Positions 4,489 through 33,991 of a stretch of 33,991 nucleotides of DNA are shown piece after piece (positions within the stretch are counted from its first letter, which is position 1; the number at the start of each line of letters is the position of its first letter). The notes under the pieces were generated by a model. It made no database searches and was not told the DNA's origin. It worked only from the letters and a program-made list of their open reading frames with translations. The stretch comes from an uncultured Ruminococcus sp. (GTDB lineage: Bacteria; Bacillota; Clostridia; Oscillospirales; Acutalibacteraceae), in the NCBI GenBank assembly GCA_902797065.1, contig CADBRK010000085.1, forward strand, positions 1-33,991, in the 5' to 3' direction. A program made the position numbers and the translations under genes.

Positions 4489-4517
4489 TTGACAAAAGAT
4501 TTGCCTTGTGCTAAGAT
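4489..4517 (+). promoter_or_regulatory. Sigma-A-type promoter for the paralog array.
   Basis: TTGACA (4489-4494), a 17-nt spacer ending in TGc, then TAAGAT (4512-4517). It lies about 35 nt upstream of the ATG at 4552. Confidence 0.55.
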
Positions 4518-4551
4518 AATACTAAAAAACGGGAAATCGGAAGGTGTTTTT

Positions 4552-5175: not shown

Positions 5176-5193
5176 TCGAGGGGAGGTCTTTCT

Positions 5194-5823
5194 ATGAAAA
5201 AAGTAAAAAAGTTCTGCGTGCCGAGTGTTGTTCCTGCGGTGATCGTATCATGTTTGATAATTTTCGTCGGCGCAGCAGCGTGCCGGTTTGCAATTACTTC
5301 CAGAATCGCAAATATTTATTATAAATTGGGCGGCGTCGGCTTTTTAATCGCTATGCTTTTTGCGGCACGCTTTATGTTTAAAGAAATGTATCAATGCTAT
5401 GCGATTTTGTTCAAAAAACGGCTGGAGTATTTCAGAAAGATCGGTGTTATATCTCAGGTTGCGCCCGATTTTGAACAGGGAGTACGCATATTCGGCAAAA
5501 ACCTTGTCGTCGGGAAGAACTTCCTTTTCGGACGAGAAAACGGTATGGTCGTCATGTACAGCGAGATAGATGTTCTGTACAGGCATGAACATAAGACGGA
5601 CTATGAATCAGGCGCTCGACCTTTGTACAGCTTTTATGTCAAGTTCATGTCGCGCGGTGAGGAGTACACTTTGTGCAGCCTTGATCATCGTCAAGCAATT
5701 TCAGACGAGTGGGTTAAGTTATGCGAACTGGCTTCGCTCAAAAACCCAAATATCCGCATCAGACGGGATTTTCAGAAGTCCCGCAGCGTTAAAGACGATA
5801 CAGTCCCGATTGATGATGATTGA
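5194..5823 (+). CDS. Paralog 2 of the same 2-TM family.
   Basis: There is an 18-nt gap after paralog 1 and a GGGGAGG RBS. The 209-aa product shares the motifs listed for paralog 1. Confidence 0.85.
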   Translation: MKKVKKFCVPSVVPAVIVSCLIIFVGAAACRFAITSRIANIYYKLGGVGFLIAMLFAARFMFKEMYQCYAILFKKRLEYFRKIGVISQVAPDFEQGVRIFGKNLVVGKNFLFGRENGMVVMYSEIDVLYRHEHKTDYESGARPLYSFYVKFMSRGEEYTLCSLDHRQAISDEWVKLCELASLKNPNIRIRRDFQKSRSVKDDTVPIDDD

Positions 5824-5841
5824 TCGCAGGGAGGTATTCTT

Positions 5842-6468
5842 ATGAAAAAAGTAAGAAGATTCTGTATGCCGAGTGCCGTTCCGGCGGCGATAGCTTCGTC
5901 TCTTATTTTTGCGGTCGGTGCGGTTGTGTTCTTGTTTACAATGATTTCCGAAAACTCAAATATTTATATCAAACTGTTCGGCGGTGCTTTTTGTATCGGC
6001 ATGTTTTTTGCCGCGCGCGCTTTGTTTAAAGAGCTTTATCTTAACTATGCGGCTATGTTCAAAAAGCGGCTGGAGTATTTTAAACAGATCGGCGTTTTCC
6101 CGATGGTTGCGCCCGATTTTGAACAGGGGGTACGCTGGTTCGGCAAAAACTTAGTCGTCGGGAAGAACTTCCTTTTCGGACGAGAAAACGGTATGATCGT
6201 AATGTACGGCGAGATAGATCAGCTTTTCAGGAACGAACACCGAACTGATTACACATCGGGTGACAGCCCGTCTTTCGATTATTATCTCAAGATGGTTGCA
6301 AACGGGAAGGAGTATACCATTTGCAGCCTGAAAAAGCAGAATCTTAATTCAGATGAATGGTATCAGTTCTGCAATTTTCTCTCTATAAAAAATCCGAATG
6401 CTCATATAAGCCAGTATTTCCAGCAGACGCAGAGCCTTGTCGATGATTCTTCGTCAGGCGATGATTAA
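5842..6468 (+). CDS. Paralog 3 of the same 2-TM family.
   Basis: There is an 18-nt gap after paralog 2 with a near-identical junction (TGATTGATCg.agggagg). The product is 208 aa and shares long identical nucleotide tracts with paralog 2. Confidence 0.85.
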   Translation: MKKVRRFCMPSAVPAAIASSLIFAVGAVVFLFTMISENSNIYIKLFGGAFCIGMFFAARALFKELYLNYAAMFKKRLEYFKQIGVFPMVAPDFEQGVRWFGKNLVVGKNFLFGRENGMIVMYGEIDQLFRNEHRTDYTSGDSPSFDYYLKMVANGKEYTICSLKKQNLNSDEWYQFCNFLSIKNPNAHISQYFQQTQSLVDDSSSGDD

Positions 6469-6587
6469 ACTTTGCGGCCACGCGGCCGCAGGCAGATTCC
6501 GTCCGGGTGTAATGTAAACGAAAGACATTTCCGCATGGATGATTTTTATCAGACCATGATTAAATTTTTTTATTGGAGGAAAAAATA

Positions 6588-7204
6588 ATGTTCGGGATAA
6601 AGAGATATTGTCTGCCGTCAATCATACCGATGATCCTTGTTATGATGATAGGCATTCTGTTTGATACACTGCTTATGATCGGTATTATCAATACCGAGCC
6701 TGTATGGATCAAGTTAGTGACGCTGGTTTTTTTCTTGGGTATCCTTGCGGCTTTTGCAGTTATCGCATGGAGAATGTATATCAGGTATGCGTATTGCTGA
6801 GAAAGAGGCGTAAACACTACGCAAAAACGGAAATGACAGAGTTGATGAAAAGTGATTTCAAATCGGCAGAACACAGATTTAAAAAGAATTTAAAAACCGG
6901 CAAAAGCTTTATTTTCGGAAAATCAAACGGTAATCTTCTAAGATACAGCGATATAGACATACTGTACCGCAACTTGCTTGAAACAACATACACTTACAGC
7001 AACAGAGTAACCTATACATATTCTATCAAGGTCGTGTCAAGCAGAGATGAGTCCGAGCTGTGTATAATACCAAATGATATGGCAGAGTCGGACGAATGGT
7101 ACAAATTGTGTGACTTTCTCGCCGAAATTTGCCCGACTATAGAAGTCCGTCAGGAAATAGTCAGGACTTTCAAATTTGTTGATGATTCACCGAGCAAGGA
7201 TTGA
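6588..7204 (+). pseudogene. Paralog 4 of the 2-TM family, disrupted by a 1-nt frameshift near 6790-6800.
   Basis: ATG 6588 (RBS GGAGGA) encodes MFGIKRYCLPS plus two TM helices and stops at 6800. The homologous C-terminal domain (LLRKRRKHY...FIFGKSNG...SDEWYKLC...VDDSPSKD) continues in another frame to 7204. Confidence 0.7.
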
Positions 7205-10038: not shown

Positions 10039-11568
10039 ATGAAAAGAATACTGTCTGCATTTAAGCGATTTTATAACCCGCCGAAGCACCCCGACCGCAA
10101 AACAAAACCTATCCCGATAAGCGATGATCTTCGGACGAATATTGAAACGCTGAAAGAATTATTCGACAATTCAAGCGACCTTACGATAAAAGAGATCGCT
10201 CTGAAAGCCGGAGATCGTGAGACGAGAATTGCAGTCGTCACGATGGAAGGGCTTGTCGATAAAGAAACTCTCGCCGCAAGCATAACGAACCCCATTTCAA
10301 ATTATATCGGGATAACCGCCGATCATGATGATATTACAACTCTGCTTGAAAACGACGTTATCACGTGCAGCGACCATACCGAAGTAACCGACCTTTCGGA
10401 GCTGTCAAAGCTCGTTATGTCCGGCTTTGCGGCAGTGCTGCCCGACGGAGCAAATAAAGCCGTTGCAGTCGGCGTGCAGGGGTTTGCGTACAGGGGAGTT
10501 GAAGAACCCGATACGGAATCGGTGCAGCGAGGTTCGAGAGAGGGTTTCGTCGAACCGCTGCGGATAAACATCTCGATGATACGCCGCAGGCTAAAAACGC
10601 CCATGCTGAAATTCGAGACAATGACTCTGGGATATACGTCAAACACCGACATATGTATTTGTTATCTGAGGAATGCCGTATCCGACGAGATACTCGACAC
10701 GCTCAGAACACGATTGAAGAAAGTCGATCTGAACACGCTGTTTGCGTCGGGTTATCTGCTGTCTTATATCGACGACGACGGCGACAATACCATGTTCCCG
10801 ACGGTTGGTGTGACCGAACGACCCGACACCGCCTGCGCCAAACTCTGTGAGGGGCGTATAGTTATAATTGTAGACGGCACTCCGAGCGTATTGTATGTGC
10901 CGCATCTTATGACCGAAAATTTCCACACCTTTGACGATTACACAAACAGACCGTTCTTCTCTACAATAGCCCGTCTGCTTAAATATCTGTCGTTTTTCAC
11001 GGCGATACTTCTTCCGGCGGTGTATGTTGCGTTTGCGTCGTACAATCCCGAATTCTTCCCGGCGCAGCTGCTGACGAAGGTTTCCGGGGCGGTATCGCAC
11101 ACGCCGTTTTCGATCTTCTCCGAGGTGCTGCTGTTTACATTCATATACGAGATCATGCGTGAGGCGGGGCTGCGGCTTCCGAAAACTCTCGGGCATGCGG
11201 TGAGTATTATCGGCGGTCTTGTCATCGGCGACACTGCAGTTAATTCGGGGTTTATCGGTGCGCCTACTCTTATGATCGTTGCGCTGACGGTGATATGCTC
11301 GTATATCATACCCGATCTGTACGCGTCCGTTGCGATACTCAGAGTGTTGTTTATAATTGCGGCTGGTGCGTTCGGCATATGGGGCGTTGTGATTCTGCTG
11401 TGTATGCTGCTGACGTACCTGTCGTCGAAATCAAGCTTCGGAATACCGTTTTTTGCGCCTGTATCGCCGTTCGGTCTGTTCGGTATGCGGGATACTGTCG
11501 TTCGGGCAAGCTGGAGTACGCTGTCAAGACGTAATATGAAGGTTCAGGAAATTGGTATTCAGGAATAA
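10039..11568 (+). CDS. Spore germinant receptor A subunit (GerAA/GerKA family).
   Basis: The 509-aa product has a soluble N-terminal domain plus a C-terminal multi-TM region typical of GerA-family A subunits. AGGAGG RBS is present. Confidence 0.88.
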   Translation: MKRILSAFKRFYNPPKHPDRKTKPIPISDDLRTNIETLKELFDNSSDLTIKEIALKAGDRETRIAVVTMEGLVDKETLAASITNPISNYIGITADHDDITTLLENDVITCSDHTEVTDLSELSKLVMSGFAAVLPDGANKAVAVGVQGFAYRGVEEPDTESVQRGSREGFVEPLRINISMIRRRLKTPMLKFETMTLGYTSNTDICICYLRNAVSDEILDTLRTRLKKVDLNTLFASGYLLSYIDDDGDNTMFPTVGVTERPDTACAKLCEGRIVIIVDGTPSVLYVPHLMTENFHTFDDYTNRPFFSTIARLLKYLSFFTAILLPAVYVAFASYNPEFFPAQLLTKVSGAVSHTPFSIFSEVLLFTFIYEIMREAGLRLPKTLGHAVSIIGGLVIGDTAVNSGFIGAPTLMIVALTVICSYIIPDLYASVAILRVLFIIAAGAFGIWGVVILLCMLLTYLSSKSSFGIPFFAPVSPFGLFGMRDTVVRASWSTLSRRNMKVQEIGIQE

Positions 11569-11581
11569 GGAGATCAGATAT

Positions 11582-13681
11582 ATGCTTCACAAAAACAATC
11601 CGACTTCTCTCGAATGGGTATGTATCCTGCTTTCGGGTTCGCTGTTCACTGCGCTGTCGTACTCTGTGTTTACCGCAGGGAGGATCAATATTCTGATATA
11701 CGCCGTATCGCAGGCTGCGGTTTTTATTTTTATGTTCTTGATTACGCTGCCGCTCAAACGCTATTTCGGGAAATTCGATAGCCCGATAGTATTACAGGCT
11801 AAATCGGGGAGTGCCGTTTTAAATGCGGTGTTGTCCGTTGTCTATTCGCTCTATTTTATGTACGCCGCTGCCGTGACGATAATTATCGGCGCAATATTCA
11901 TAAAAACGTATATCGACAATAATCTTCCCGTTACTCTGTTCGCCGTTCTGGTAGCCGTATGCGGTTATCTGTCTGCAAAGAGGGGAATAAACGGTATCGC
12001 AGGAAGTACGGTCATACTCACAATGCTGTCGGGCGCAGCCGTGCTGTTTGTTTTTATTTCGCTGATATTTCGTGCGGATATGCTGAACTTCTCGTATGTC
12101 TATTCGCTTGATTTTTCCGATATAAGCCGATCGGCGGTGTATTCGCTGTCGGGTGCGGTGCTGCTGCCGTGTGTGCTTATGTTCGGGAGAACCGCAGAAG
12201 AAAAACCGCACAAGGGCGTCAATATCTGGATAACACTGTCGTTTGCTTTGTGTATTTCGATAGCCGTAATGACATATGCCGTATCGGGCGAGTATTCAAA
12301 TTATACAAAGTTCCCGTTTTATACATCTGCGCAGCTGCTTGAGGCAGGTTCGTTCAAAAGGCTTGACGTGCTTTTCCTTATGCTGTGGGTGATAGGTATA
12401 TATATAAATATATCGGTGTTGCTTTCGTCGCTCAAAGAGGTTATGTATATGACGTATGAATCGGTAACGGCAAAAAGAGTATTTGTTGCAGGGGTGATAA
12501 CAGTGACGGCAGTTTCGGCAGTATCGTTCAAATACGATGAATTGAGAGATATTCTGCTCGATCACTTTTTTGTTACGCTGCTGATAATTCTGACAGTGTT
12601 TATACTGCCCGGGCTGTTCCTTGTCTTTAACAGACCACGCAGGAAAAAGCGTACTGCTGCGGCTGTGCTGGCACTATTGACTGTTCTTTCGTCGTTTGCG
12701 CTGTCGGGCTGCGGAAAAACCGAGATACAGGACAGACTTATCGTCAAGGGCATAGGCGTAGATAAAACTACAGACGGGTATGACGTCACGGTACAGTATA
12801 CAGATACATCTTCGGGCGAAGATAAGCAGGAAAACAGATGTTTTGCCGTGTCGGGCGCGAGTATAGCGGACGCTGTGGGGAAGATAAAGAACAGTATCGG
12901 TCTTGAACCGTTTTTCGGGCAGCTCAGCGCGGTAACGGTGGGTTACGATTCGGCGGAGGATATGGATATTGCCGCCGACTATTTCATGAGAAGATCGGAT
13001 GTGCGCCCTTCCGTTAAGCTGTATCTGAGCCGGACGACCGCCGGGGATATTCTGAGATTCGAGAAGGACGGCTCAGTCATGCCGATAGATACGCTGACGT
13101 CTATATCTCCCGAATTCTCGGTCAAAAGCAACGATTACACATTGTTAAGCTATATAAACGCACGTATCGACCCATGCAGGACTCCTGCCGTAACGGTGCT
13201 GAAATGCGCCGATACCATACGATTGGCGACCGTGGCGGTGTTCGGCTGTGAGGGCGTATATATGCTTGATGACGATAGCTTCACCGCATATAAGCTTCTG
13301 CACGGCAAGCTTGATGAAAGCGTTCTTTCGGCGCAAGGCGTTTCATGCCGTGTGGAGAAGTGCAGAAATCATATTTCCGTCGATTATAACGGCGGCGGGA
13401 TCGCTTTCTACACCGTCAGTGATCTGAATATCGTTATCTCGGAAAACGCCGGTCATCTGCACGATGATGAAGTCTGCGGCATTATTGAACGGTACCTCGA
13501 ACGTCTCGTTAATGATTCTGCGGAAACAATACTGAAAAATAATCGTGACGACGTCTTTGAGTTGGGGCGTCATTTGGTGAATTTTAACAGGAATAGCGAT
13601 AATGCGTATGAGGTGTACAGAGAATTATTATCCGACTGCGAAGTTAATGTTAACGTCAAATGCAAAATTGTTAATAATTAG
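11582..13681 (+). CDS. Fused germinant receptor B subunit (APC-like permease, about 10 TM) and C subunit (GerAC lipoprotein domain) in a single ORF.
   Basis: ATG 11582 has an AAGGAG RBS. The first roughly 350 aa are polytopic. The sequence then reads RRKKRTAAAVLALLTVLSSFALSGC (Cys codon 12710-12712), a lipoprotein signal with lipobox, followed by a GerAC-like IVKGIGVDK...YDVTVQ domain. Confidence 0.8.
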   Translation: MLHKNNPTSLEWVCILLSGSLFTALSYSVFTAGRINILIYAVSQAAVFIFMFLITLPLKRYFGKFDSPIVLQAKSGSAVLNAVLSVVYSLYFMYAAAVTIIIGAIFIKTYIDNNLPVTLFAVLVAVCGYLSAKRGINGIAGSTVILTMLSGAAVLFVFISLIFRADMLNFSYVYSLDFSDISRSAVYSLSGAVLLPCVLMFGRTAEEKPHKGVNIWITLSFALCISIAVMTYAVSGEYSNYTKFPFYTSAQLLEAGSFKRLDVLFLMLWVIGIYINISVLLSSLKEVMYMTYESVTAKRVFVAGVITVTAVSAVSFKYDELRDILLDHFFVTLLIILTVFILPGLFLVFNRPRRKKRTAAAVLALLTVLSSFALSGCGKTEIQDRLIVKGIGVDKTTDGYDVTVQYTDTSSGEDKQENRCFAVSGASIADAVGKIKNSIGLEPFFGQLSAVTVGYDSAEDMDIAADYFMRRSDVRPSVKLYLSRTTAGDILRFEKDGSVMPIDTLTSISPEFSVKSNDYTLLSYINARIDPCRTPAVTVLKCADTIRLATVAVFGCEGVYMLDDDSFTAYKLLHGKLDESVLSAQGVSCRVEKCRNHISVDYNGGGIAFYTVSDLNIVISENAGHLHDDEVCGIIERYLERLVNDSAETILKNNRDDVFELGRHLVNFNRNSDNAYEVYRELLSDCEVNVNVKCKIVNN

Positions 13682-19350: not shown

Positions 19351-22032
19351 TTATTTATCTGCAAGTCTGAGAACATCTTCGTATACTCTCTTACAGCTGT
19401 CCTCGTCAAAGAACGGATAGAATTCTTCGATCCTTTTGATGTACTTATCGCTGTTTTTGCAGTCGTTCTCGATGTATTTGCACACGGCATTTACCGTGCT
19501 TTCGAGATCGCGGCATACAGGACCGAATCCGTTGTCGTCGTAGCTGAAATAACCCTCGGAATAAGAGTGACCTTTGAAGAACGCTTCTTTATCGAACTGC
19601 GAGTATACAACAGGCTTTTTCAGATAGCCGAAGTCAAAGAATACGCTGGAATAGTCGGTGACGAGAAGCGCGCTTTCGGCAAACTGAGTCTGATAATCAA
19701 CATATCCGTGGTTTACCTTGAAAACATCGTTCTCGGTAAAGTCAACGTACTGCTCCGTGAACAGCGGATGCAGGCAGAATAGACCTTCATAGCCGTTCTT
19801 CTTCATGCATTCAACAAGCTTGGGGTTGTTGATAAGTCCGTTATAGAATTTAAAGAAATCGCTTTCCTTAAACTTATCGTAGTACACGCTGGTATCTGTT
19901 TTGGGATCAACGCACTTGTAGAGAGATTTTCTCCATGTCGGAATGATAAGTATCTTCTTCTTGACATTCTTGCTCATTCTTGTGAGATTATCAAATCTCG
20001 GGAATCCCGTAAGCCTTACCTCTTCTTCGGTATAGAAGTATTCCCCGTCAATAATCGATCTGTACTCGGGCTTACCTGCCGTAACGAAAAGCTTTATGTT
20101 CTTGTTTGTCTTGTTGAGCCAGCCTGAGATGTCGTCTTTTGTTATTCCGTGCTGAAGGAACACAAAGTTGAAGTTGAACAGATCGGACATACAGAGTCTG
20201 TCGCCGCCGTAGGGGTTAAGAACGTATTCGCTTGCCTGAGACGAAATGACGTTTTCGCTCTGGAGAGTCATAAGTCTGAACTTTGCGGTACCGAAATCTA
20301 TGATCTTGCCGATTTTTGACATTCTCTCATAGTCCTCGCTGTCCTTCTGAAGAACAAAGTACGGCTTGATGCCCCTGTGCTTTATACTCTGAACATATTT
20401 GAAGAAGTGCTCGCCGTTATCGCCTGCTTTGTTGGGTCTGTCAGAGATAAGCCATACGTGCTTGTTGAACGGACGCATCAGGAAGTAGAGCAGACGGTGT
20501 TTTATCAGATAGCCTCGCTTTATTCTCCTGAGATGAGACCAGTACTGAAGCTCGTACTTCAAATGCCTTCTCTTTTTATAAGGAATAACTTTAAGCGTTT
20601 TACCGACTCTTTTCAGGATATAATCGCCCGTGCAGTAGTATCCGAAATCTTTGCCGAGCGTCGGGATATGGGCAAATTTACCCATTTCAACATATATCCT
20701 GGTAATGTAGGTATCCTTATATTTCAGGAAGAATTCAATGCTGTCTTCTCTGCCTTTTTTTACGGGTATCGCAAACTTAAAGCCCTTGCCGTCAAAAGCT
20801 TTAAGCCCCATGATCGGCGTGTCGTACTTTTCGGTGAGGTACAGCTCGGGTGTGTACTCTTTTCCGTTTACCGTCGCATAGAAAGAATAATCCGCACGAT
20901 CAAGGAAGAGATTGTCTTTTCCTTCGATGTACAGCACGTCGTCCTGAATTTCCATAAAAGTGAAAATGAGCAGCGATCTCACTTCGAGAAGATTCATCAC
21001 GATAATATTATTGAAGAACAGCTTTCCGTGATCGTATTCAAGTTCTTTGGTAATATCTCTCCGGTATTTAATGCCGAGAGCATATACCTTCGCTCCGACA
21101 CCCATATTCTTCTGAGTGAGAATGATCCTGTCGTCAATTTCGAGAAGTAGACTGTTAATGATGCTTTTGTACTGCTCCAATTTCTCGTTGGTAAGCATAC
21201 CTTTCAGGTCTTTGCCGAGTCTCCAACGCAGATCATACATTACGATGTACTGAATGAACTCGAGAACACGGCCGTAACGCTTTTTGGACTGTTCGATAAG
21301 ATCCTTATGGAAATACTTCGGCGAATCGAAATAATAGCTGTCGGATTTCAGCTCGTTCTGGAGAGCCGAGCTTTCGTCGCTTCTTTTTCTGTAAAGGTGA
21401 ACAGCCTCGCGGATAACGCCGAGTTTGCACTTGTCGAGAATGATCGAGTTGATAAACTGAGAGTCCTCGCCGTATTTAAGATTAGTCGAGAATCTGATGT
21501 CACCGATAGCCGAGGCTTTTATAAATGCGCCTGTAACGTCCATCTGGATCATTTCGTAGTAGGTGAGGAGATCAACGACTCTGGTGCTGCTGAATTTATA
21601 GTCAAGGTAGTGATAGCCCGTTGTTGCATCAAAAAACTGTTTTCTTGCACCTACAACGTCTATCTGATCCTGGTTTTCTTCAAAGAAATCATATACGAGC
21701 TTAAACGCGTCCTTCTTCCAGCAGTCGTCGGAGTCAAGGAAGTTTACGTATTTTCCCTCGATGTATTTTATGCCGTTATTCCTTGCGGAGCTTACGCCGC
21801 CGTTTTCCTGAAGAACATATACGATATTATCGGGGTACTTGCTCTGATATTTCTTGCATATCTCTTCGCTGTTGTCGGGGCTTCCGTCGTTGACAAATAT
21901 TATCTGAATATTCTCCTTGAATCCGATTGTCTGAGCGATTACAGAATCTACGGTTTCTTTCAGATATTTCTCTACATTGTAAACCGGTATAACTACCGAA
22001 AACTTGAATTTGTAATCGTTTTTGTTTGACAT
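19351..22032 (-). CDS. Bifunctional family-2 glycosyltransferase (N-terminal) and CDP-glycerol glycerophosphotransferase (TagF-like, C-terminal).
   Basis: N-terminus: FSVVIPVYNVEKYL...VNDGSPDNS (GT2). C-terminus: FLQHGI and IIPTWR motifs of the TagF/TagB family. The product is 893 aa. Confidence 0.88.
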   Translation of the reverse strand: MSNKNDYKFKFSVVIPVYNVEKYLKETVDSVIAQTIGFKENIQIIFVNDGSPDNSEEICKKYQSKYPDNIVYVLQENGGVSSARNNGIKYIEGKYVNFLDSDDCWKKDAFKLVYDFFEENQDQIDVVGARKQFFDATTGYHYLDYKFSSTRVVDLLTYYEMIQMDVTGAFIKASAIGDIRFSTNLKYGEDSQFINSIILDKCKLGVIREAVHLYRKRSDESSALQNELKSDSYYFDSPKYFHKDLIEQSKKRYGRVLEFIQYIVMYDLRWRLGKDLKGMLTNEKLEQYKSIINSLLLEIDDRIILTQKNMGVGAKVYALGIKYRRDITKELEYDHGKLFFNNIIVMNLLEVRSLLIFTFMEIQDDVLYIEGKDNLFLDRADYSFYATVNGKEYTPELYLTEKYDTPIMGLKAFDGKGFKFAIPVKKGREDSIEFFLKYKDTYITRIYVEMGKFAHIPTLGKDFGYYCTGDYILKRVGKTLKVIPYKKRRHLKYELQYWSHLRRIKRGYLIKHRLLYFLMRPFNKHVWLISDRPNKAGDNGEHFFKYVQSIKHRGIKPYFVLQKDSEDYERMSKIGKIIDFGTAKFRLMTLQSENVISSQASEYVLNPYGGDRLCMSDLFNFNFVFLQHGITKDDISGWLNKTNKNIKLFVTAGKPEYRSIIDGEYFYTEEEVRLTGFPRFDNLTRMSKNVKKKILIIPTWRKSLYKCVDPKTDTSVYYDKFKESDFFKFYNGLINNPKLVECMKKNGYEGLFCLHPLFTEQYVDFTENDVFKVNHGYVDYQTQFAESALLVTDYSSVFFDFGYLKKPVVYSQFDKEAFFKGHSYSEGYFSYDDNGFGPVCRDLESTVNAVCKYIENDCKNSDKYIKRIEEFYPFFDEDSCKRVYEDVLRLADK

Positions 22033-22047
22033 GCGATACTCCTTTTA

Positions 22048-23058
22048 TTACTTTTCAAAGCTTGATTTATCGGGAAGAAGTTTTGTAAACGAATCTATTA
22101 CCTGCTGTTTTTGTTTTTCAAAGTCGGATGTGTTTATCGTATCATTAACGCAGATCTGCTTATATCTGCCTTTCTCTATTGATCTGAGCAGCTCGTCAAA
22201 GAGGGAATCTGTGATGTGGAAACATCTTCCGCCCTTTGTGCTTTTCGGGATCGGAATTCCTTCCGCAAGCTGCCAGTATTTTATAAGCCACTGATTGCAG
22301 TTGTTCTTTGTGCGGAACTTATCGCTGCATGTTTCGTCAAGAACATCTCCTTCAATATCCCAGACCGTTTCGTAGGTACTTTTCAAAAAGTTGCTCGGAA
22401 GATGATTGTAGTACATTCCCGGGAACCACGGCCACATACTCAGGGCGATGGTCTTGATATTTCTCTTTATACCGTTTGCGGGGGTGTACCATTTGAAGAA
22501 ATGCTTTTTCATGACCTGCGTGCGTACAAAATGTGTGTTGATAAGCTCGATGTCGTTGCCGTTGAAGAAACCTGCGCTCTTTTTCCTGAAAAAGATGCAG
22601 TCTAAAGCGTATGTATCGCGGGGACGTCCGTCCTTGAAAAAGTCTTCGGGCTTAACGGGTGCGGTTATGAACATATCGTCGTTGAAATACACAAACTGCT
22701 CGGCAAGCCCTTCGATCCTGTGGAGATTCAGCTCAATGGTATTTGCGTTGAAGGTAGGCAGATATTTCTCGGGTATATAGTCTTTGTGATTAACAACATT
22801 AAGCTTCGGGTTGTCCGTATTCAGCCACGGGGGAAGATGTCCCCATGTGACGAAGTGGATCTTGTTTACCCACGGCGCAAACTTCTCGACACCTCTGAAC
22901 CAGAACTGGAGATTATCCCAGCTTCTGTATCGTATCTCGGTGCTGTCACCCGTTTTATTCGATTTGTCGTATAAATTCTTTTCTTTCTGCCACTCGGGAT
23001 CGTTTCCGTCGACCCAGATAATAACAAAATCAATTTTATCCAAGATCTTCACCACCAT
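22048..23058 (-). CDS. Stealth-family capsular polysaccharide (hexose-1-phosphate) phosphotransferase.
   Basis: Stealth CR1 is IDFVIIWVDGNDPEW. CR2 is EIRYRS...APWVNKIHFVTWGHLPPWLN...VVNHKDY...LPTFN. CR3 is FVYFNDDMF. Confidence 0.85.
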   Translation of the reverse strand: MVVKILDKIDFVIIWVDGNDPEWQKEKNLYDKSNKTGDSTEIRYRSWDNLQFWFRGVEKFAPWVNKIHFVTWGHLPPWLNTDNPKLNVVNHKDYIPEKYLPTFNANTIELNLHRIEGLAEQFVYFNDDMFITAPVKPEDFFKDGRPRDTYALDCIFFRKKSAGFFNGNDIELINTHFVRTQVMKKHFFKWYTPANGIKRNIKTIALSMWPWFPGMYYNHLPSNFLKSTYETVWDIEGDVLDETCSDKFRTKNNCNQWLIKYWQLAEGIPIPKSTKGGRCFHITDSLFDELLRSIEKGRYKQICVNDTINTSDFEKQKQQVIDSFTKLLPDKSSFEK

Positions 23059-23154
23059 TGTTAAAAACCGGACGGTATGAAAACGACTGCTTTAATTGAA
23101 GAAAAACCGCATCACACATAACCGCCCGTTTTAAATCTATTGCGTACTTTGTTC

Positions 23155-23183
23155 ATTATATCATATTTGATGATTGTGTACAA
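23155..23183 (-). promoter_or_regulatory. Sigma-A-type promoter on the minus strand for the Stealth / GT2-TagF genes.
   Basis: On the minus strand: TTGTAC (23183-23178), a 17-nt spacer ending in TGa, then TATAAT (23160-23155). Confidence 0.5.
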
Positions 23184-23285
23184 TTAGCAAATACTACAAG
23201 AAATTTTAGAAATATTGCTCAATTATCATTTTTTCCTTATATGATTCGACAAAATCATGATGAAAATACTGTGCGGAAACACAAA

Positions 23286-24359
23286 TTATACAGCTTTTTT
23301 TCGACATGCGCCGAGCTTATTTTTGTACAGCGAACAGAGCTTTTCTATGGGTATATGTATGACTGCGGCGGCAGGTATCGAAATAACAAGCACCGACAGC
23401 GTAAATACAGGTTCATCTGTATTCAGAATGCTTATTTTTTGGACGATCTCTATTATCAGACCGTGGAGCAGGTACAGTTCAAGCGAGAATACGCCGATCT
23501 TGTTCATCAGAGTGTTTCCGGAAAAATCAACCTTCATGCATATAAGAGGTATAAACACCGCCATCGCAAACGAAAAAAAGAGCGTGATAAAATAGTTTAT
23601 ACCGCTGCCCCTTTTCGTGGATGCCTTCGCCGCATATAAAGCCGCTATCAGCGCAAGGTTTATAATCAGCGGCAGTGTGTAATGCTTTTTGAGAGCTTTC
23701 AGGATTTTCTTTTCACAGACAGACAGTACGACGCCCGCCCAGAAGCAGGGAGCTGTGTTGTACCACCACATGCCGTAGTGCAATCTCCGGCACATCAGCA
23801 TATATATAATAACTCCGGTCAGATTGCCGATCATAAACAGTACGGTCTTATTCTTTGTGAAAAACAGCTTCGCATTTATGTAGTACACGATATACAGATA
23901 GATGATCGCAAGGATATACCACGAGTTCTTTACGATCGGATCGCCGTTATAAAGCGAGATCAGCGCTTTTTGTATCGTGCAGCCGTTTGCGAAATGCTCG
24001 TACAGATAATATATCACAAAGAAAATGACATAAGGAATAACGATCACACCGAGACGCTTGGGGATAAACCCTTTCAGGTATGCTTCACGCTTCGTTTTGA
24101 GCTGCACGGTGAGTCCGTACCCCGATATGATAAAAAAGCCCGCTGTGCCGAGAACACCGAAATGGTACAGCCTGTCAAATAAAAACCCGCCTTCGGTTAT
24201 GTTTGAAATATGGTGAAGAACAACTACAACGGCAAATATTCCCCTTAATGCCCTGCACTGTCCGGGCGAAAAATAGTCGTCTGCGAATTGCTTGCCCGGC
24301 TTTTTTATTTTGAGGCGGTACAATACAGTCATTATAAATAACGCTATGAATATATCCAT
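23286..24359 (-). CDS. Acyltransferase family 3 (membrane O-acyltransferase, OatA/WecH-like).
   Basis: The 357-aa product has about 10 TM segments and the LRGIFAVVVVLHHI motif typical of the acyltransferase_3 family. Confidence 0.85.
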   Translation of the reverse strand: MDIFIALFIMTVLYRLKIKKPGKQFADDYFSPGQCRALRGIFAVVVVLHHISNITEGGFLFDRLYHFGVLGTAGFFIISGYGLTVQLKTKREAYLKGFIPKRLGVIVIPYVIFFVIYYLYEHFANGCTIQKALISLYNGDPIVKNSWYILAIIYLYIVYYINAKLFFTKNKTVLFMIGNLTGVIIYMLMCRRLHYGMWWYNTAPCFWAGVVLSVCEKKILKALKKHYTLPLIINLALIAALYAAKASTKRGSGINYFITLFFSFAMAVFIPLICMKVDFSGNTLMNKIGVFSLELYLLHGLIIEIVQKISILNTDEPVFTLSVLVISIPAAAVIHIPIEKLCSLYKNKLGACRKKAV

Positions 24360-28901: not shown

Positions 28902-30479
28902 ATGAACAAAAAGACCGTAAGCATATTATTGGCACTGCTTACAACTGCGTCGGCTGTATTGGCAGGCTGCGGAGGAACACCCCCGGGAATTGCTCCGCCG
29001 AGAGACCCGAGCCTTTATTCTACGGCGGCTTCGTCCGAAAGCACAACGAAGGATTCGACAAGCACTGCGGCTTCGTCCGAGAGTACATCGAAGGAAACAG
29101 AAAGTTCGACAAGCTCCGCCGATTCGTCATCAGCGTCCGAGCCGGAGGAGAAGAAGCCTTTTGACGGTTCGTATCAGAAGAACGACGACGGCACTATCGC
29201 CATGAACTACGGCGCAATACTGCACGCATGGTCATGGAGCTTTGAAACGATCACCGAACATCTTGACGACATAAAAGAAGCAGGCTATACTTCGATCCAG
29301 ACGTCGCCGATCAACCTCTGCAAAGTCGGCGAAAAAGCCGGAATGTGCCTTTACAGCGACGACGATAAGGGCAAGTGGTACTATCACTATCAGCCTACCG
29401 ATTATACGATCGGCAATTATCAGCTCGGTTCAAAGGATAAGTTCAAGACTCTCTGCGAAGAGGCTGAGAAGAGAGGGCTTAAGATCATCGTTGACGTACC
29501 GCTTAATCACGTTTCGAGCGACCGTTCGGTTGTTTCGCGAAATATTCTCGATCTGTGCGAAAAGCCTTTCCACGACAGAGGCGAGATCGGCAGCACATCG
29601 AGCCGCAAGCAGGTTACGCAGAACGATCTTCTCGGACTTGCCGACCTCAATACGCAGGATCCCGCCATTCAGCAGTATGAGCTGAATTACCTTAAAGAAG
29701 TAATCGAAACAGGCGCGTCGGGTTTCAGATTTGACGCCGCTAAGCATATCGAACTGCCCGACGACGACCCCGAGTATGCGTCCGATTTCTGGACTGTCGT
29801 TCTCGATAACGGCGCAGAGTTCCAGTACGGCGAGATACTCCAGGGCGAGTGCGACAGAATAGCCGATTATTCAAAGATCATGGGCGTTACGGCATCGGCG
29901 TACGGCAAGAATATCAGAACAGCAGCCGCAGGCAACATGAGCGTTTCGGTAATAGAATCTTATTCCGCAAAGGACGTTGACCCGTCCGTCATGGTAACAT
30001 GGGTAGAGTCTCACGACAATTACTGCAACGACGGCACATGGGAGACTCTCGAGGAATCCGACGTTGAGTTCGGCTGGGCTGTCATCGCCGCAAGAAGCGG
30101 CGGCGCACCGCTGTTCTTCAGCAGACCCGACGGAAGCTCTCTTGACAGCCAGTGGGGCAAGAATGTAATAGGCAACGTCGGTTCGGACGGCTACAAGAGT
30201 CCCAACGTATCTGCGCTCAACCACTTCCGCAACGAGATGGCAGGGCTTGACGAAACACTCTCAAATCTCGATTCGGATAAGAAGGTACTTATGATAGAGA
30301 GAGGTGACAAGGGCGCAGTTATCATCAACAAAAGCTCGGGCGAGTTCAAGATCGACGGAGCTGCGACAGTCCTTGCAGACGGTACTTACAAGGATAAGGT
30401 CACGGGCGCTGAATTTACCGCTGCGGGCGGCAAGCTGAGCGGTACTGTTCCGCAGGACGGAATTATTGTAATATATTGA
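28902..30479 (+). CDS. GH13 alpha-amylase, AmyE-like lipoprotein.
   Basis: Lipobox LAGC. ILHAWSWSF...AGYTSIQTSPIN, VDVPLNH, GFRFDAAKH, YGEIL and WVESHDN correspond to GH13 conserved regions I-IV. Confidence 0.9.
   Translation: MNKKTVSILLALLTTASAVLAGCGGTPPGIAPPRDPSLYSTAASSESTTKDSTSTAASSESTSKETESSTSSADSSSASEPEEKKPFDGSYQKNDDGTIAMNYGAILHAWSWSFETITEHLDDIKEAGYTSIQTSPINLCKVGEKAGMCLYSDDDKGKWYYHYQPTDYTIGNYQLGSKDKFKTLCEEAEKRGLKIIVDVPLNHVSSDRSVVSRNILDLCEKPFHDRGEIGSTSSRKQVTQNDLLGLADLNTQDPAIQQYELNYLKEVIETGASGFRFDAAKHIELPDDDPEYASDFWTVVLDNGAEFQYGEILQGECDRIADYSKIMGVTASAYGKNIRTAAAGNMSVSVIESYSAKDVDPSVMVTWVESHDNYCNDGTWETLEESDVEFGWAVIAARSGGAPLFFSRPDGSSLDSQWGKNVIGNVGSDGYKSPNVSALNHFRNEMAGLDETLSNLDSDKKVLMIERGDKGAVIINKSSGEFKIDGAATVLADGTYKDKVTGAEFTAAGGKLSGTVPQDGIIVIY
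29025..29114 (+). repeat. Imperfect tandem duplication (39 nt and 48 nt) encoding the Ser/Thr-rich linker (AASSEST.K..) of the amylase.
   Basis: GCGGCTTCGTCCGA.AG.ACA.CGAAGGA...GACAAGC occurs twice (29025-29063 and 29067-29114). Confidence 0.7.
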
Positions 30480-30489
30480 TTGTATGATT

Positions 30490-30523
30490 AAGGACGCAGA
30501 ATTCTTTGCGTCCTTATTTTTTT
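30490..30523 (+). terminator. Rho-independent terminator.
   Basis: Stem AAGGACGCA (30490-30498) / TGCGTCCTT (30507-30515) followed by ATTTTTTT. Confidence 0.85.
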
Positions 30524-30608
30524 AAGTCAATTTAAAGTGCGTTTTTAAGTTTTTTTAAAGGAATGTAATGTAAAATAAATACAGAGAGAAAAAGAGAGGG
30601 TGATACAC

Positions 30609-31205
30609 TTGAAAATACTGTTTGCCGTATCGGACAGAGATCTCCTGCATTCATACAGCAGGCTGCTCGAACTTGACGGCGCAGACGTATGCACATCGTT
30701 TGACGGTACACAAACGATAACGCTCATAGAGTCGCATAAGTTTGACGTTGCAGTGATCGGCGAAAGCTTACCGAGAGTCGAAAACAGCCGTATCCTCGGT
30801 ATGCTGTACGGCAAGGGCGTTCCGACGATCGTCATATCGGGCAAACGTGTGACGTCAAAAATGCTGTGCGGTTCTCAGATAGCTTGTTCATATCTTCCCG
30901 TACCGTTCCTGCCCGAAGAGATGAGATCGCTCATAAAAACGCTGCTTGAGAAAAAGCAGTCGGGCAAGGTGTTCAGGACAGGCGAAGTCAGCATAGATAC
31001 AAGCTGCTTTTCGATGGAGGGCGTCCGTGTAACAAACGAGGAGATAGATGTTCTCAGGGCAGTTTGCGAAGATACGCCGATAAATGTGAGATCGGAGAGC
31101 GTGTATATCAGCGCGCTTAACAGCAAGCTCGGCAGCCTTAACAAGCATTCAAGGATAAAATATATATTGGGAAAGGGCTATAGGTTGGTGAATAATAATG
31201 GATAA
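30609..31205 (+). CDS. OmpR/PhoB-type response regulator homolog with a degenerate receiver domain (no phospho-acceptor Asp).
   Basis: TTG 30609 lies 8 nt after GAGAGGG and gives MKILFAVSDRD. The position of the acceptor Asp reads FDVAVIGESLP. The conserved Lys position reads YLPVPF. The C-terminal winged-helix segment reads GKGYRLV. Confidence 0.8.
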   Translation: MKILFAVSDRDLLHSYSRLLELDGADVCTSFDGTQTITLIESHKFDVAVIGESLPRVENSRILGMLYGKGVPTIVISGKRVTSKMLCGSQIACSYLPVPFLPEEMRSLIKTLLEKKQSGKVFRTGEVSIDTSCFSMEGVRVTNEEIDVLRAVCEDTPINVRSESVYISALNSKLGSLNKHSRIKYILGKGYRLVNNNG

Positions 31206-32475
31206 AGTCAGAAGAAAAATCGTGTTGTATTCGCTGGCGTCGATATTTGTTCTGCTTACGGTCATGCTTACCGTTATAAACGGACTCAATTTCACAATGG
31301 CGGCGGACGACGCAGACAAGATCACGCAGATACTTGCGGAGAGACACGGAACATTCGAGGGCGAGGACAATAAGAACAAACCTCCCGAACATTCCGATCA
31401 GGACAATAAAACCGAAACTAACGATGAAGCCGCACGAGGTTCGGCGGCTGCGCCGAAGGGTATGGGACCTATGGGTCCGCAGTCTCCCGAGATGAATAAA
31501 TCGGTAAGATATTTTACGTACAGATTCGACGAAAAGGGCAGAGCGAAGAATATCGCTTACAATTTATCGGCTGTCGATCAGTACGACGGGGCTGTCTGGG
31601 CAAGGAAACTTCTGGAGGAGAACAGCGTAAACTCCACGGGCTGGACAAACGGAACATACCGCTACAGAATATATAAGATCAAAGACAAAACGTACGTTAC
31701 GGTCATAGATCAGGGGCGCGAGCTTTCGCCGTCTTACAGAATACTCATAATCTCGGTATGCGGAGAACTGATAGGTTTGCTCGTAAGCTTCTTCATACTG
31801 GAGCTTATCAGCAAAAAACTTGTTCGTCCGCTCGAGGACGCAGACCGCAAGCAAAGGCAGTTTATCGCAAATGTCGAGAACGAATTCAAGCTTCCGCTGA
31901 CGATAATCAATGCCGATACCGAGATAATCGAAAAGGAGAGCGGCTGCACCGATTACACAAGCTCGATAAACAGGCAGGTTCGCAAAATGACGTCTCTCGT
32001 CAAAGACCTCAGAGCGTTGTCTGTCATTGATTACGACCAAAAGAACGCAGAGGAGATAGACCTCTCGGAGATCGCAGCGGCGGTCATCGACGGCAGCAAA
32101 ACGAAGTTCGACGAGAAGAAGATTGACCTTTGCATGGATATAGAGGATAATATCACCGTTCACGGCGACGAGGACAGAATACGCAGAGTTCTGAGGGAGC
32201 TTGTGAATAACTCGCTGATGTTCGCAAAGACAAAAGCTAAGTTCACACTTCTGCGTGATAACGAAAGAATAAAGCTGATTCAGACAAACGATACCGATCT
32301 TCCTTCCGGTTCGCTCGATATAGTGTTCGACAGGTTTGTTACTCTCGATAATGCCGACACTCTCGACACCGCAGGGCTGGGGCTTTCGTTCGTGAAGGAC
32401 GCCGTAAGATCAATGGACGGCAGAGTAAAAGCAGAGGTAACAAGCGGAGAATTTATTCTCACGATCGCTTTGTAA
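31198..32475 (+). CDS. Sensor histidine-kinase homolog lacking the phospho-acceptor His and with a degenerate G1 box.
   Basis: Two TM helices flank a loop of about 130 aa. The H-box reads FIANVENEFKLPLT (N in place of H). The N-box LVNNSLMFA and G2 box AGLGLSFV are retained. It overlaps the regulator gene by 8 nt. Confidence 0.8.
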   Translation: MDKVRRKIVLYSLASIFVLLTVMLTVINGLNFTMAADDADKITQILAERHGTFEGEDNKNKPPEHSDQDNKTETNDEAARGSAAAPKGMGPMGPQSPEMNKSVRYFTYRFDEKGRAKNIAYNLSAVDQYDGAVWARKLLEENSVNSTGWTNGTYRYRIYKIKDKTYVTVIDQGRELSPSYRILIISVCGELIGLLVSFFILELISKKLVRPLEDADRKQRQFIANVENEFKLPLTIINADTEIIEKESGCTDYTSSINRQVRKMTSLVKDLRALSVIDYDQKNAEEIDLSEIAAAVIDGSKTKFDEKKIDLCMDIEDNITVHGDEDRIRRVLRELVNNSLMFAKTKAKFTLLRDNERIKLIQTNDTDLPSGSLDIVFDRFVTLDNADTLDTAGLGLSFVKDAVRSMDGRVKAEVTSGEFILTIAL

Positions 32476-32489
32476 CGGGGGGTGACGTC

Positions 32490-33203
32490 ATGGCAGAAGT
32501 TCAGAAGCCGATCGTAGTAATGAAGCGCTACGAGATGAAATATATCCTTACGGCGGAACAGACGGAGTATTTCAAAGAGGCTGTGAAGGGTCATATGGAG
32601 ATCGACAAGTTCGGTCTTACGTCAATAGCCTCACTCTATTACGATACGCCCGATTACCGCCTGATACGCACGTCCATAGAGAAGCCGAAGTTCAAAGAAA
32701 AGATCAGGCTTCGTTCTTACGGACTTGCTACCGAGAGTTCGCCCGTATTCCTGGAGCTTAAACGCAAGGCTTACGGTATAGTTTACAAACGCAGAGTACA
32801 GTCCACGATACCGCTTGTGAATAAGTTCTTTGACGGCGAGGGCGACATCTGCGCGGGCGGACAGATAAACAGCGAGATAACTTATTTCCGTGATTATTAC
32901 AAAGAGCTTGCGCCCGCATGTCTGATTATATATGACAGGGTGGCATATTTTCAGCCCGACGGCGATCTCAGACTCACCATCGACCACAACCCGAGATACA
33001 GAGCGGACGAGCTGAATCTCACTCATTCAATGGACGGGATTTCGCTTCTGCCCGAGGGCAGCACGATACTCGAAGTCAAGGTTCAGCAGGCAGTGCCGAT
33101 ATGGCTGGCGACGATACTCTCCGAGGGGAAGATATATAAAGGCAGCTTTTCAAAGTACGGCACGGCGTACAAAATGCAAATGGAAAAAATAAGAAATATT
33201 TGA
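32490..33203 (+). CDS. VTC-domain protein (polyphosphate polymerase-type triphosphate-tunnel / CYTH-like domain).
   Basis: N-terminal KRYEMKYIL, SLYYDTPDY, KIRLRSYG, LELKRK and VYKRR basic tunnel strands are typical of bacterial VTC (PF09359-type) proteins. The product is 237 aa. Confidence 0.8.
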   Translation: MAEVQKPIVVMKRYEMKYILTAEQTEYFKEAVKGHMEIDKFGLTSIASLYYDTPDYRLIRTSIEKPKFKEKIRLRSYGLATESSPVFLELKRKAYGIVYKRRVQSTIPLVNKFFDGEGDICAGGQINSEITYFRDYYKELAPACLIIYDRVAYFQPDGDLRLTIDHNPRYRADELNLTHSMDGISLLPEGSTILEVKVQQAVPIWLATILSEGKIYKGSFSKYGTAYKMQMEKIRNI

Positions 33204-33220
33204 GGATAGGAGTAATACTT

Positions 33221-33892
33221 ATGTTTGATTCGATTTATACAACAACGGTGACTGCGCCGCAGTTCTTTATAATGGCGGGCGCTGCCCTGATCTCGGGCTT
33301 TATCTATGCATGGCTGATGTCGTTCAGAGTGCGTTCGGCAAAAAGGTTCTTTACGGTGGCTGCGGTGCTGCCGTTCATGATAGCTGCGGTAATTACATTT
33401 GTCAACGGCAATATAGGCGCAGGCGTTGCTATCGGCGGCGCATTCAGCCTGATACGTTTCAGGAGTGCACAGGGCAGCTCCGACGAGCTTGTGACGATAC
33501 TCATCGCTATGGGTTCGGGCATAGCCTTCGGTATGGGCTACATAGGCTACGGCATTGTAATACTCCTCGGAATGGCGGCAATATACTTCATACTTTCGCT
33601 TATACCCGTATTCGAGCATAAGAGTATGTCTATGGATAAGCTGCTCAGAGTGACTATCCCCGAATCGCTTGAATATACGGACGTGTTCGACGATACATTT
33701 GCGCACTTCCTCTCAAGCTATGAGAACGTCGGCGTAAAAACAACAGGCATGGGCTCAATGTTCAGACTCTCGTTCAAGATACGCATGAAAGACCCTTCCG
33801 AAGAGAAGCGCTTCATTGACGAGCTGAGACTTAAAAACGGCAATCTCGAGATCTCTATCCTGCCGTACACCGAGCCGCAGAATCAGCTGTAA
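33221..33892 (+). CDS. DUF4956-family membrane protein, the usual genomic partner of bacterial VTC-domain proteins.
   Basis: ATG 33221 lies 8 nt after AGGAG. The motif VNGNIGAGVAIGGAFSLIRFRSA...GMGYIGYG matches my recollection of DUF4956. Confidence 0.75.
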   Translation: MFDSIYTTTVTAPQFFIMAGAALISGFIYAWLMSFRVRSAKRFFTVAAVLPFMIAAVITFVNGNIGAGVAIGGAFSLIRFRSAQGSSDELVTILIAMGSGIAFGMGYIGYGIVILLGMAAIYFILSLIPVFEHKSMSMDKLLRVTIPESLEYTDVFDDTFAHFLSSYENVGVKTTGMGSMFRLSFKIRMKDPSEEKRFIDELRLKNGNLEISILPYTEPQNQL

Positions 33893-33991
33893 TACGGAAA
33901 GATAGGCTCAACCCCAAAAATCGTTGAAACTTGAAAACAGGGATAAAAAGGTGTATTCTAATAACGGTGATGAAAATGTCGATAACAGTAG

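Follow-up and report, generated by a model that had tools for sequence, protein, structure and literature searches.

Near the 3' end of the 33,991-nucleotide contig CADBRK010000085.1 of an uncultured Ruminococcus sp. (assembly GCA_902797065.1, forward strand; this whole stretch is called the window below), four tightly packed plus-strand genes lie directly 3' of an intrinsic terminator. They encode an OmpR-like regulator, a histidine kinase homologue, a stand-alone VTC-domain protein and a DUF4956 membrane protein, and this operon is described here together with its candidate operator and promoter. An earlier note, made from the sequence alone, had reported the terminator, the packing of the four genes on one strand with an 8-nt overlap and gaps of 14 and 17 nt, and an AGGAG site; all of these were confirmed at the level of coordinates. 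The features are as follows.

30489..30526, plus strand: intrinsic terminator that ends the lipoprotein alpha-amylase gene upstream (28902-30479) and marks the 5' boundary of the operon
30521..30561, plus strand: operator-like array of four direct TTWAAG repeats (starts at 30521, 30532, 30544 and 30556; spacing 11-12 bp)
30571..30576, plus strand: -10-like hexamer TAAAAT, candidate operon promoter with no recognisable -35
30609..31205, plus strand: OmpR-like pseudo-response regulator gene (198 aa)
31198..32475, plus strand: pseudo-histidine kinase gene (425 aa; 8-nt overlap with the regulator gene)
32490..33203, plus strand: gene for the stand-alone VTC-domain protein (237 aa; 14-nt gap after the kinase gene)
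33208..33212, plus strand: AGGAG ribosome-binding site of the DUF4956 gene, as read in the sequence, 8 nt before the ATG at 33221
33221..33892, plus strand: DUF4956 membrane protein gene (223 aa; ATG 33221, 17 nt after the VTC stop)
33905..33991, plus strand: left end of an ISL3-family insertion sequence, with its inverted repeat and the beginning of the transposase gene (85/87 nt match to the end of the insertion sequence in contig L092)

The terminator has a 12-bp stem (30489-30516) with five GC pairs and a 4-nt loop, followed by a T-run, and is also conserved upstream of the operon in the sibling contig L001. The longest open reading frame of the regulator gene begins with GTG at 30600; its start was set to TTG 30609 on the basis of the orthologues and the gene call in L001 (198 aa). 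No terminator was found between the operon genes or up to the window end. Neither the operon leader nor the whole window matched Rfam families or riboswitches, no tRNAs were present, and the four operon proteins had no match among the PADLOC anti-phage defence models at E ≤ 0.01. Domains were assigned with the curated Pfam cut-offs (VTC 23, DUF4956 30.6, HisKA 26.9, HATPase_c 26.4 and Response_reg 30.2 bits). The four domain assignments made in the earlier note were borne out, with Pfam backing VTC, DUF4956 and HisKA/HATPase_c, and with the regulator placed by its alignment to OmpR-family receivers (E 1e-7).

The VTC protein matched PF09359 with 137.4 bits (E 7.5e-40) over residues 12-228 of 237. 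When a profile of diverse bacterial homologues (A5) was compared with the PDB, yeast Vtc4 (3g3q) was retrieved with an E-value of 1.8e-17, Vtc2 with 1.6e-11 and Vtc3 with 2.4e-08. Searches of the PDB with phmmer, using the VTC protein or its C-terminal 78 aa, returned spurious WD40-repeat matches only and were discarded. According to the cryo-EM structure of the yeast VTC complex, triphosphate is bound by K200, R264, R266, K281, Y359, R361, S457 and K458 of Vtc4 and manganese by E426, and K458 is an Ile or Leu in the inactive Vtc2/3 (bioRxiv 10.1101/2023.01.27.525886). Alignments of hidden Markov models placed K200, R264, R266, K281, Y359, R361 and E426 of Vtc4 opposite K17, R73, R75, K91, Y148, R150 and E195 of the window protein, respectively. 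Among 141 diverse representatives (36-65% identity to the window protein), these Vtc4-type active-site positions were kept in 119-141. Further downstream, a motif S221-K222-Y223 is invariant and lies at the expected distance from E195, with K222 present in 138/141. Judged by its residues, the active site matches that of the active polymerase subunit, and the protein is a candidate polyphosphate polymerase. The analogy to Vtc4 drawn in the earlier note thus holds at residue level, as the catalytic positions align and are conserved.

The window protein and the yeast or eukaryotic VTC complex have in common the catalytic family, the triphosphate- and manganese-binding residues and a tie to a small multi-helix membrane protein. 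They differ in architecture, since the bacterial protein is a single 237-aa domain lacking SPX and fused membrane helices. They would also differ in regulation: yeast VTC responds to inositol pyrophosphates, whereas the operon in the window carries a pair resembling a two-component system (TCS). A VTC profile search of 1.84 billion representative sequences returned 6338 clusters (50% identity) at E ≤ 1e-3, and nearly all of the best 150 clusters were stand-alone proteins of 225-300 aa.

The match of the membrane protein to PF16316 (DUF4956) was marginal, with 31.9 bits against the cut-off of 30.6; however, 17/17 close homologues matched the family (best E 6.1e-11). Its AlphaFold2 (AF2) model, with a mean predicted local distance difference test (pLDDT) score of 68, contained helices at residues 12-36, 41-60, 65-76 (short), 87-104 and 108-127 and a C-terminal, ferredoxin/ACT-like beta-alpha-beta-beta-alpha-beta domain at 139-215. 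Residues G73, A74, R79, F80, R81, G100 and G104 were invariant down to 14% identity. The only invariant charges, R79 and R81 of an RFR motif, are located in the loop between helices 65-76 and 87-104 and would face the cytoplasm by the positive-inside rule. No solved relative was found for DUF4956 in the PDB by sequence. Foldseek searches with the C-terminal domain gave weak, generic ferredoxin-like hits to S6, ACT, PII and CutA proteins, none of them significant (best E 8.8e-3). The Streptococcus intermedius homologue SIR_1592 has been described as having four transmembrane helices plus an ACT domain (bioRxiv 10.1101/2024.04.20.589940), and the model of the window protein agrees with this. The MgtC/SapB/YhiD family, with five transmembrane helices and an ACT-like C-terminus, resembles DUF4956 in architecture but shows no significant sequence relationship to it. 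A relationship to MgtC was not reproduced: the Pfam MgtC family (PF02308) was reached by 1/17 homologues at E 3.7, and hhalign against Escherichia coli YhiD gave a probability of 1.7%, the single-sequence template making this a weak test. DUF4956 was also unrelated, as far as could be detected, to the yeast Vtc1-type (DUF202) membrane subunits. Because no kinship to the yeast VTC membrane subunits is detectable, the word channel can be applied to DUF4956 by analogy only; it may work like the Vtc channel while not being a member of that family.

The kinase homologue matched HisKA (28.1 bits) and HATPase_c (43.3 bits), and its match to HK853 had an E-value of 8e-16. It consists of a first transmembrane segment, an extracytoplasmic region of approximately 140 aa, a second transmembrane segment and the DHp and CA domains, with the hydrophobic segments at residues 6-36 and 178-209. 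The extracytoplasmic region matched no known sensor-domain family. In the alignment of the window H-box (FIANVENEFKLPLT) with that of HK853 (FIANISHELRTPLT), the phospho-acceptor His260 of HK853 is opposite an Asn. This position was His in just 5/81 orthologues, the others carrying mainly Asn (30), Ser (15), Lys (12), Gln (10) or Arg (5). Nevertheless, the H-box segment of the DHp domain was among the best-conserved parts of the pseudo-kinase despite the missing His. The N-box Asn was present in 81/81 orthologues and the G2 motif GLGL in 80/81, while G1 reads NDTxL and not DxGxG. This odd G1 was rejected as proof of lost ATP binding, as the canonical, His-bearing relative from Acetoanaerobium also has a non-canonical motif (SNSCEL). 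By these motifs, the pseudo-kinase may have retained ATP binding.

The regulator scored 19.9 bits against Response_reg, below the cut-off of 30.2, and aligned to PrrA and MtrA at E 1e-7. At the positions of PhoB E9, D10, D53, T83 and K105 it carries V, S, G, S and V, respectively. Across the clade, D10 was never Asp and K105 never Lys, and D53 was Asp in 27/73; the kinase His and the receiver Asp were both kept in 0/72 loci. Other TCSs in the same loci had the full canonical residue set. Trans_reg_C gave no Pfam hit in the regulator, and alignment with canonical relatives revealed a shortened OmpR/PhoB-type winged helix with an 18-aa deletion between helices a2 and a3. The recognition helix YIxALNxKL and the wing RIKYxxxxGYRLV were retained. 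The "degenerate TCS" of the earlier note was therefore well described, with His, the acceptor Asp and Lys replaced by Asn, Gly and Val, respectively, and the degeneracy extends clade-wide. On the evidence of these residues, the sensor pair cannot perform His-Asp phosphotransfer, and the loss is shared by the whole clade. The pair is not decaying, as all genes are intact and the H-box segment is well conserved.

A VTC-linked kinase from Acetoanaerobium aligned with residues 2-414 of the window kinase, including the extracytoplasmic region (E 8e-34). The Acetoanaerobium pair is canonical, with the H-box SHEIKTPL in the kinase and the D-D-T-K set and a normal Trans_reg_C domain in the regulator. 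The simplest reading of these sequences is that VTC-DUF4956 ancestrally had a canonical TCS of its own, which became phosphorylation-independent in the rumen clade. The window pair thus resembles canonical OmpR/PhoB-type TCSs, especially the VTC-linked ones of Acetoanaerobium, Paenibacillus and Enterococcus faecalis, in domain order and end-to-end sensor alignment, in the overlap of the regulator and kinase genes, and in an 11-bp direct-repeat operator placed like a pho box. It differs from them in lacking the His (kept in 5/81), the acidic-pocket Asp and the Lys, and in the 18-aa deletion in the winged helix. Atypical response regulators and pseudo-kinases such as HP1043, ChxR, GlnR and DivL retain their folds for protein-protein or DNA-binding roles without phosphotransfer. 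Those are mostly orphans or have one degenerate partner, whereas here a translationally coupled cognate pair is affected on both sides and is nevertheless kept as a pair throughout the clade. A pair lacking both His and Asp, with canonical relatives for comparison, is a natural experiment in the rewiring of a TCS to phosphorylation-free signalling.

Upstream of the regulator gene, the array of TTWAAG repeats overlaps the expected -35 position, a pho-box-like geometry. In the 34-kb window, TTWAAG-N5-6-TTWAAG pairs occurred nowhere else on either strand. In 64 orthologous upstream regions, TTTAAG was counted 32 times, compared to 9.4 ± 3.0 in dinucleotide shuffles, with a modal spacing of 11 bp; its reverse complement was not enriched (6 vs 5.5). 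Of the TTWAAG pairs in 1 Mb of loci, half fell in the approximately 280 nt that precede the regulator gene. The distance from the end of the final repeat to a conserved -10-like hexamer (TAAAAT, TATTAT, TATATT or TATAAT) was 9-10 nt in six species, and these had no -35 box. This arrangement suggests that the regulator may still bind DNA and control its own operon via the array.

Orthologues were sought with one genome per GTDB species, and the 80 best-matching loci, all of one clade, were compared. They derive from metagenome-assembled genomes (MAGs) of rumen and gut Clostridia with labels such as Ruminococcus, Acutalibacteraceae and Clostridia. The order regulator-kinase-VTC-DUF4956 on one strand was kept wherever the contig permitted. 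Identity to the window proteins was 73-93% for VTC and 65-92% for DUF4956, with medians of 80% and 75%, respectively; the medians of the kinase homologue and the regulator were 50% and 38%. As the identity of VTC and DUF4956 is far above that of the sensor pair, the enzyme and its membrane partner form the strongly constrained core. We read the operon as a conserved cell-envelope module of rumen Acutalibacteraceae and Ruminococcus-like Clostridia. DUF4956 was located directly 3' of VTC in 78/79 informative loci. In the exception, L073, the same stretch of approximately 45 nt (CCGTCATCTTGCACAGAAATTCCTTGACTTGCGCCAGCAA) occurs both ahead of the regulator gene and directly behind VTC (about 1-60 and 2790-2850), pointing to a rearrangement through this repeat or to an artefact of MAG assembly. 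A Cthe_2159-like gene directly followed the operon in 31/57 loci with enough sequence and lay upstream in a few. Cthe_2159 itself is described as a calcium-dependent binder of polyanionic glycans, with affinity for cellulose and polygalacturonate (Close et al. 2014).

More distant VTC-DUF4956 pairs were collected by tblastn in a plasmid and chromid collection. The two genes were adjacent in all five taxa found (5/5), in the following arrangements.

Acetoanaerobium: response regulator-histidine kinase-VTC-DUF4956-PLD-like
Paenibacillus: divergent response regulator/histidine kinase, then VTC-DUF4956-Cthe_2159; the pair is canonical OmpR-type
E. faecalis plasmid: VTC-DUF4956-response regulator-histidine kinase-CotH; the pair is canonical OmpR-type
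Pseudobutyrivibrio plasmid: CotH-VTC-DUF4956 inside a glycosyltransferase/pyruvyl-transferase (exopolysaccharide) cluster; no adjacent TCS
Nonomuraea: VTC-DUF4956

Every recurrent third partner bears a signal peptide, a lipoprotein box or a membrane anchor. In Acetoanaerobium (L087, 9492-11048), the gene after DUF4956 encodes a membrane-anchored PLD/cardiolipin-synthase-like protein (PLDc_N and two PLDc domains) and not CotH or Cthe_2159. PPK1 also contains PLD-fold domains.

The window ends within the ISL3-family element, which in this strain lies between DUF4956 and any gene further downstream. The left inverted repeat (GGCTCAACCCC...CGTTGAAA) begins 12 nt past the DUF4956 stop and is followed by the transposase start; the open reading frame of the matching element in L092 is DDE_Tnp_ISL3 (216 bits). 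A metagenome scan with a first pattern for the window tail gave no match, and a shorter pattern matched the insertion sequence. Six further public contigs encode an identical VTC protein; none has the insertion sequence, and the window diverges from these siblings 12 nt past the DUF4956 stop. The element landed in the intergenic spacer between DUF4956 and Cthe_2159 of this strain, and the contig end inside it is probably a repeat-induced assembly break. The earlier note had seen no terminator before the window end. This observation stands and is explained by the contig stopping inside a repeated insertion sequence; the last 87 nt (33905-33991) are, however, the left end of ISL3 and not operon sequence.

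In 6/6 sibling contigs, a fifth gene starts 57 nt past the DUF4956 stop. Its product is a secreted protein of 1334 aa with a Cthe_2159 beta-helix (192.7 bits), a Listeria-Bacteroides repeat (Flg_new) and a C-terminal type I dockerin. The expectation that a CotH-like kinase would follow the operon found no support in these siblings, which carry the Cthe_2159/Flg_new/dockerin protein at the place where the window operon is cut by the insertion sequence. Neither CotH nor pel genes were found within the window or within 20 kb of the sibling contig L001. Beyond the operon in L001 (15540-20714) lie two convergent alpha-amylase genes with dockerin (and CBM26) modules. The dockerins on the fifth gene and on these amylases suggest a cohesin-dockerin surface assembly of the "amylosome" type in this organism. 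A link to spores or the spore envelope, also raised in the earlier note, found no support: the presence of GerA genes in the organism is the only relevant fact, and the dockerin partner speaks for the surface of the vegetative cell.

The bare VTC-DUF4956 gene pair is already known and is not new. CotH, a "polyphosphate polymerase" (VTC) and DUF4956, with or without DUF4832, have been reported as an accessory group of Gram-positive pel operons (Whitfield et al., bioRxiv 10.1101/768473). In S. intermedius, SIR_1592-1594 form such a CotH/VTC/DUF4956 trio, and its authors found no trio outside pel operons (bioRxiv 10.1101/2024.04.20.589940). The VTC-DUF4956(-CotH) association also occurs in NELoc-2 of Clostridium perfringens (PMC2879425). 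The window operon resembles the pel accessory group and NELoc-2 in its adjacent, co-oriented VTC-DUF4956 pair with an extracytoplasmic third partner, and in neither of these has a function been assigned. It differs from the pel group in being free of pel and CotH genes, in the sensor/regulator pair upstream and in the Cthe_2159/Flg_new/dockerin gene that follows the operon in the siblings. In the literature searched, we found no description of a dedicated VTC-DUF4956-linked TCS family or of its clade-wide loss of His and Asp, nor of a pho-box-like operator or of a Cthe_2159/dockerin partner where both pel and CotH are missing. An evolutionary review from 2023 covers VTC domains of eukaryotes only.

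From these observations we propose a mechanism of four steps. The VTC protein would use ATP to build a poly- or oligophosphate chain, as Vtc4 does, while docked to a DUF4956 oligomer from the cytoplasmic side. The RFR motif and the ferredoxin/ACT-like domain of DUF4956 would take up the anionic chain and move it into the membrane or through it. DUF4956 would then correspond to the yeast Vtc1/3/4 membrane ring in function but not by homology. The product would then serve extracytoplasmic partners, namely the Cthe_2159 beta-helix/dockerin protein in the sibling strains and CotH kinases or the PLD-like protein in other lineages; this step outside the membrane is included because the recurrent third partners are all extracytoplasmic or anchored. 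Expression would be set by the regulator on the four TTWAAG repeats, which take the place of a -35 box, and the membrane pseudo-kinase would steer the regulator by direct protein-protein contact, without phosphorylation. As a whole, this chain of polyphosphate synthesis, hand-off to DUF4956, extracytoplasmic use and phospho-free regulation is a tentative proposal, to which we give somewhat less than an even chance.

In textbooks, bacteria make polyphosphate with PPK1 or PPK2, and VTC counts as an invention of eukaryotes. Should the VTC protein make polyphosphate, it would be a second bacterial polyphosphate synthase and a possible source of surface or extracellular polyphosphate in gut and rumen Firmicutes, in streptococci and enterococci and in the pathogenicity loci of C. 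perfringens. It would also provide a rationale for the secreted CotH kinases, for which a phosphoryl donor outside the cell is otherwise not obvious. With two genes and a candidate promoter/operator, the system is compact. In its boldest form, the proposal amounts to a second, PPK-independent bacterial polyphosphate route, in which a VTC polymerase feeds a DUF4956 conduit that brings polyphosphate to the cell surface. Secreted Cthe_2159 or CotH partners would bind or use it there (e.g. as a phosphoryl donor), and in the rumen clade the route would be under a phospho-free switch. We regard this form as possible but rather doubtful.

Several points weigh against the proposed mechanism. Glu15, in strand beta1, is invariant in the bacterial VTC proteins and is an addition relative to yeast, where Vtc4 has Thr198. 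The motif ExExK is the metal-binding motif of classical, hydrolytic enzymes of the CYTH/TTM fold, and a Glu at this position is compatible with a hydrolase or other TTM chemistry. The correspondence of S221 and K222 to Vtc4 S457 and K458 is inferred from motif and spacing, with no alignment across the segment. The AF2 model of the VTC protein, built with 15 close homologues of at least 71% identity, had a mean pLDDT of 39 and was unusable. The DUF4956 model is only moderately confident and its topology is a prediction, and Foldseek with this model found nothing for the membrane part, Vtc membrane subunits included. The a2-a3 loop of PhoB contacts sigma-70; with this loop missing, the regulator may therefore repress rather than activate. 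An exact TTWAAG pair was present in just 8 of approximately 65 loci, and Cthe_2159 was not directly downstream in 26/57. The literature searched contained no report of polyphosphate polymerase activity for any bacterial VTC protein. The earlier note had called bacterial VTC/DUF4956 pairs functionally uncharacterised, in agreement with this literature, which offered a single genetic test: deletions of the CotH, VTC and DUF4956 homologues of S. intermedius had no Pel or aggregation phenotype under the conditions used (bioRxiv 10.1101/2024.04.20.589940).

The same Glu15, at an ExExK position typical of hydrolytic and cyclase TTMs and missing in Vtc4, would fit a cytoplasmic role in signalling or homeostasis. 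The VTC protein would then be a tri- or polyphosphatase or the maker of a small phosphorylated or cyclic product, and DUF4956 would sense this ligand and alter a membrane function, such as the handling of ions or of phosphate, similarly to MgtC, with no export. The ligand-binding type of the ferredoxin/ACT/PII-like fold in the C-terminal domain of DUF4956 is consistent with such sensing, as are the MgtC assignment by CDD and the suggestion of cytoplasmic polyphosphate by the S. intermedius authors (bioRxiv 10.1101/2024.04.20.589940). However, the Vtc4-specific polymerase residues are all conserved, including the discriminating Lys, the MgtC link could not be reproduced, and the recurrent third partners are all extracytoplasmic. 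We consider this explanation unlikely, although worth keeping in view.

A role as an exopolysaccharide or cell-wall accessory appears quite unlikely. Here, the pair would supply phosphate to, or attach it to, a surface glycan on which the Cthe_2159, CotH or glycosyl-hydrolase-like partners act, and polyphosphate would not be the end product. The presence of VTC, DUF4956 and CotH among the accessory genes of Gram-positive pel operons, the position of the Pseudobutyrivibrio trio within a glycosyltransferase/pyruvyl-transferase cluster and the described affinity of Cthe_2159 for cellulose and polygalacturonate all point in this direction. On the other hand, the operon is flanked in the window and in L001 by amylase and housekeeping genes, with no pel or glycosyltransferase genes among its neighbours, and Pel production in S. 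intermedius was independent of these genes.

It is very unlikely that VTC and DUF4956 are input or accessory parts of the sensor system, comparable to LiaF or BceAB, which generate or relay a signal and are not the regulated output. The linkage of this kinase family with VTC and DUF4956 is ancient, with a variable gene order (VTC-DUF4956-response regulator-histidine kinase in E. faecalis), and in the window both gene pairs are packed tightly within one operon, which such a role would accommodate. Nevertheless, VTC-DUF4956 also occurs without an adjacent TCS, in Pseudobutyrivibrio and in the pel-linked trios, and its far better conservation than that of the sensor pair fits an enzyme core with an exchangeable regulator. 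Finally, the loss of the catalytic kinase and receiver residues and the insertion sequence at the 3' end could mark a decaying relic, i.e. a dead TCS with non-functional passengers, but this is effectively refuted and was rejected on conservation, given four intact open reading frames in the same order in approximately 80 species-level genomes, identities of 73-93% for VTC and 65-92% for DUF4956, and an H-box segment conserved without its His.

Elsewhere in the window, cell-wall phospho-glycopolymer genes are encoded on the minus strand at 19351-24359, comprising a fusion of GT2 and CDP-glycerol glycerophosphotransferase (893 aa), a Stealth-family protein (336 aa) and an Acyl_transf_3 protein. 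Their orientation is unrelated to the operon, and they represent another phosphate-containing surface polymer nearby. A spore germination receptor locus is located on the plus strand at 10039-13681. It encodes GerA (509 aa, 515 bits) and a 709-aa open reading frame that joins Spore_permease (GerAB-like) to the N- and C-terminal domains of GerAC, an apparent GerAB-GerAC fusion. Four tandem paralogues of 228, 209, 208 and 166 aa, with 31-59% pairwise identity and no Pfam match, are encoded on the plus strand at 4489-7204; all four have hydrophobic segments at the N-terminus, share a conserved C-terminal domain and end in an acidic tail.

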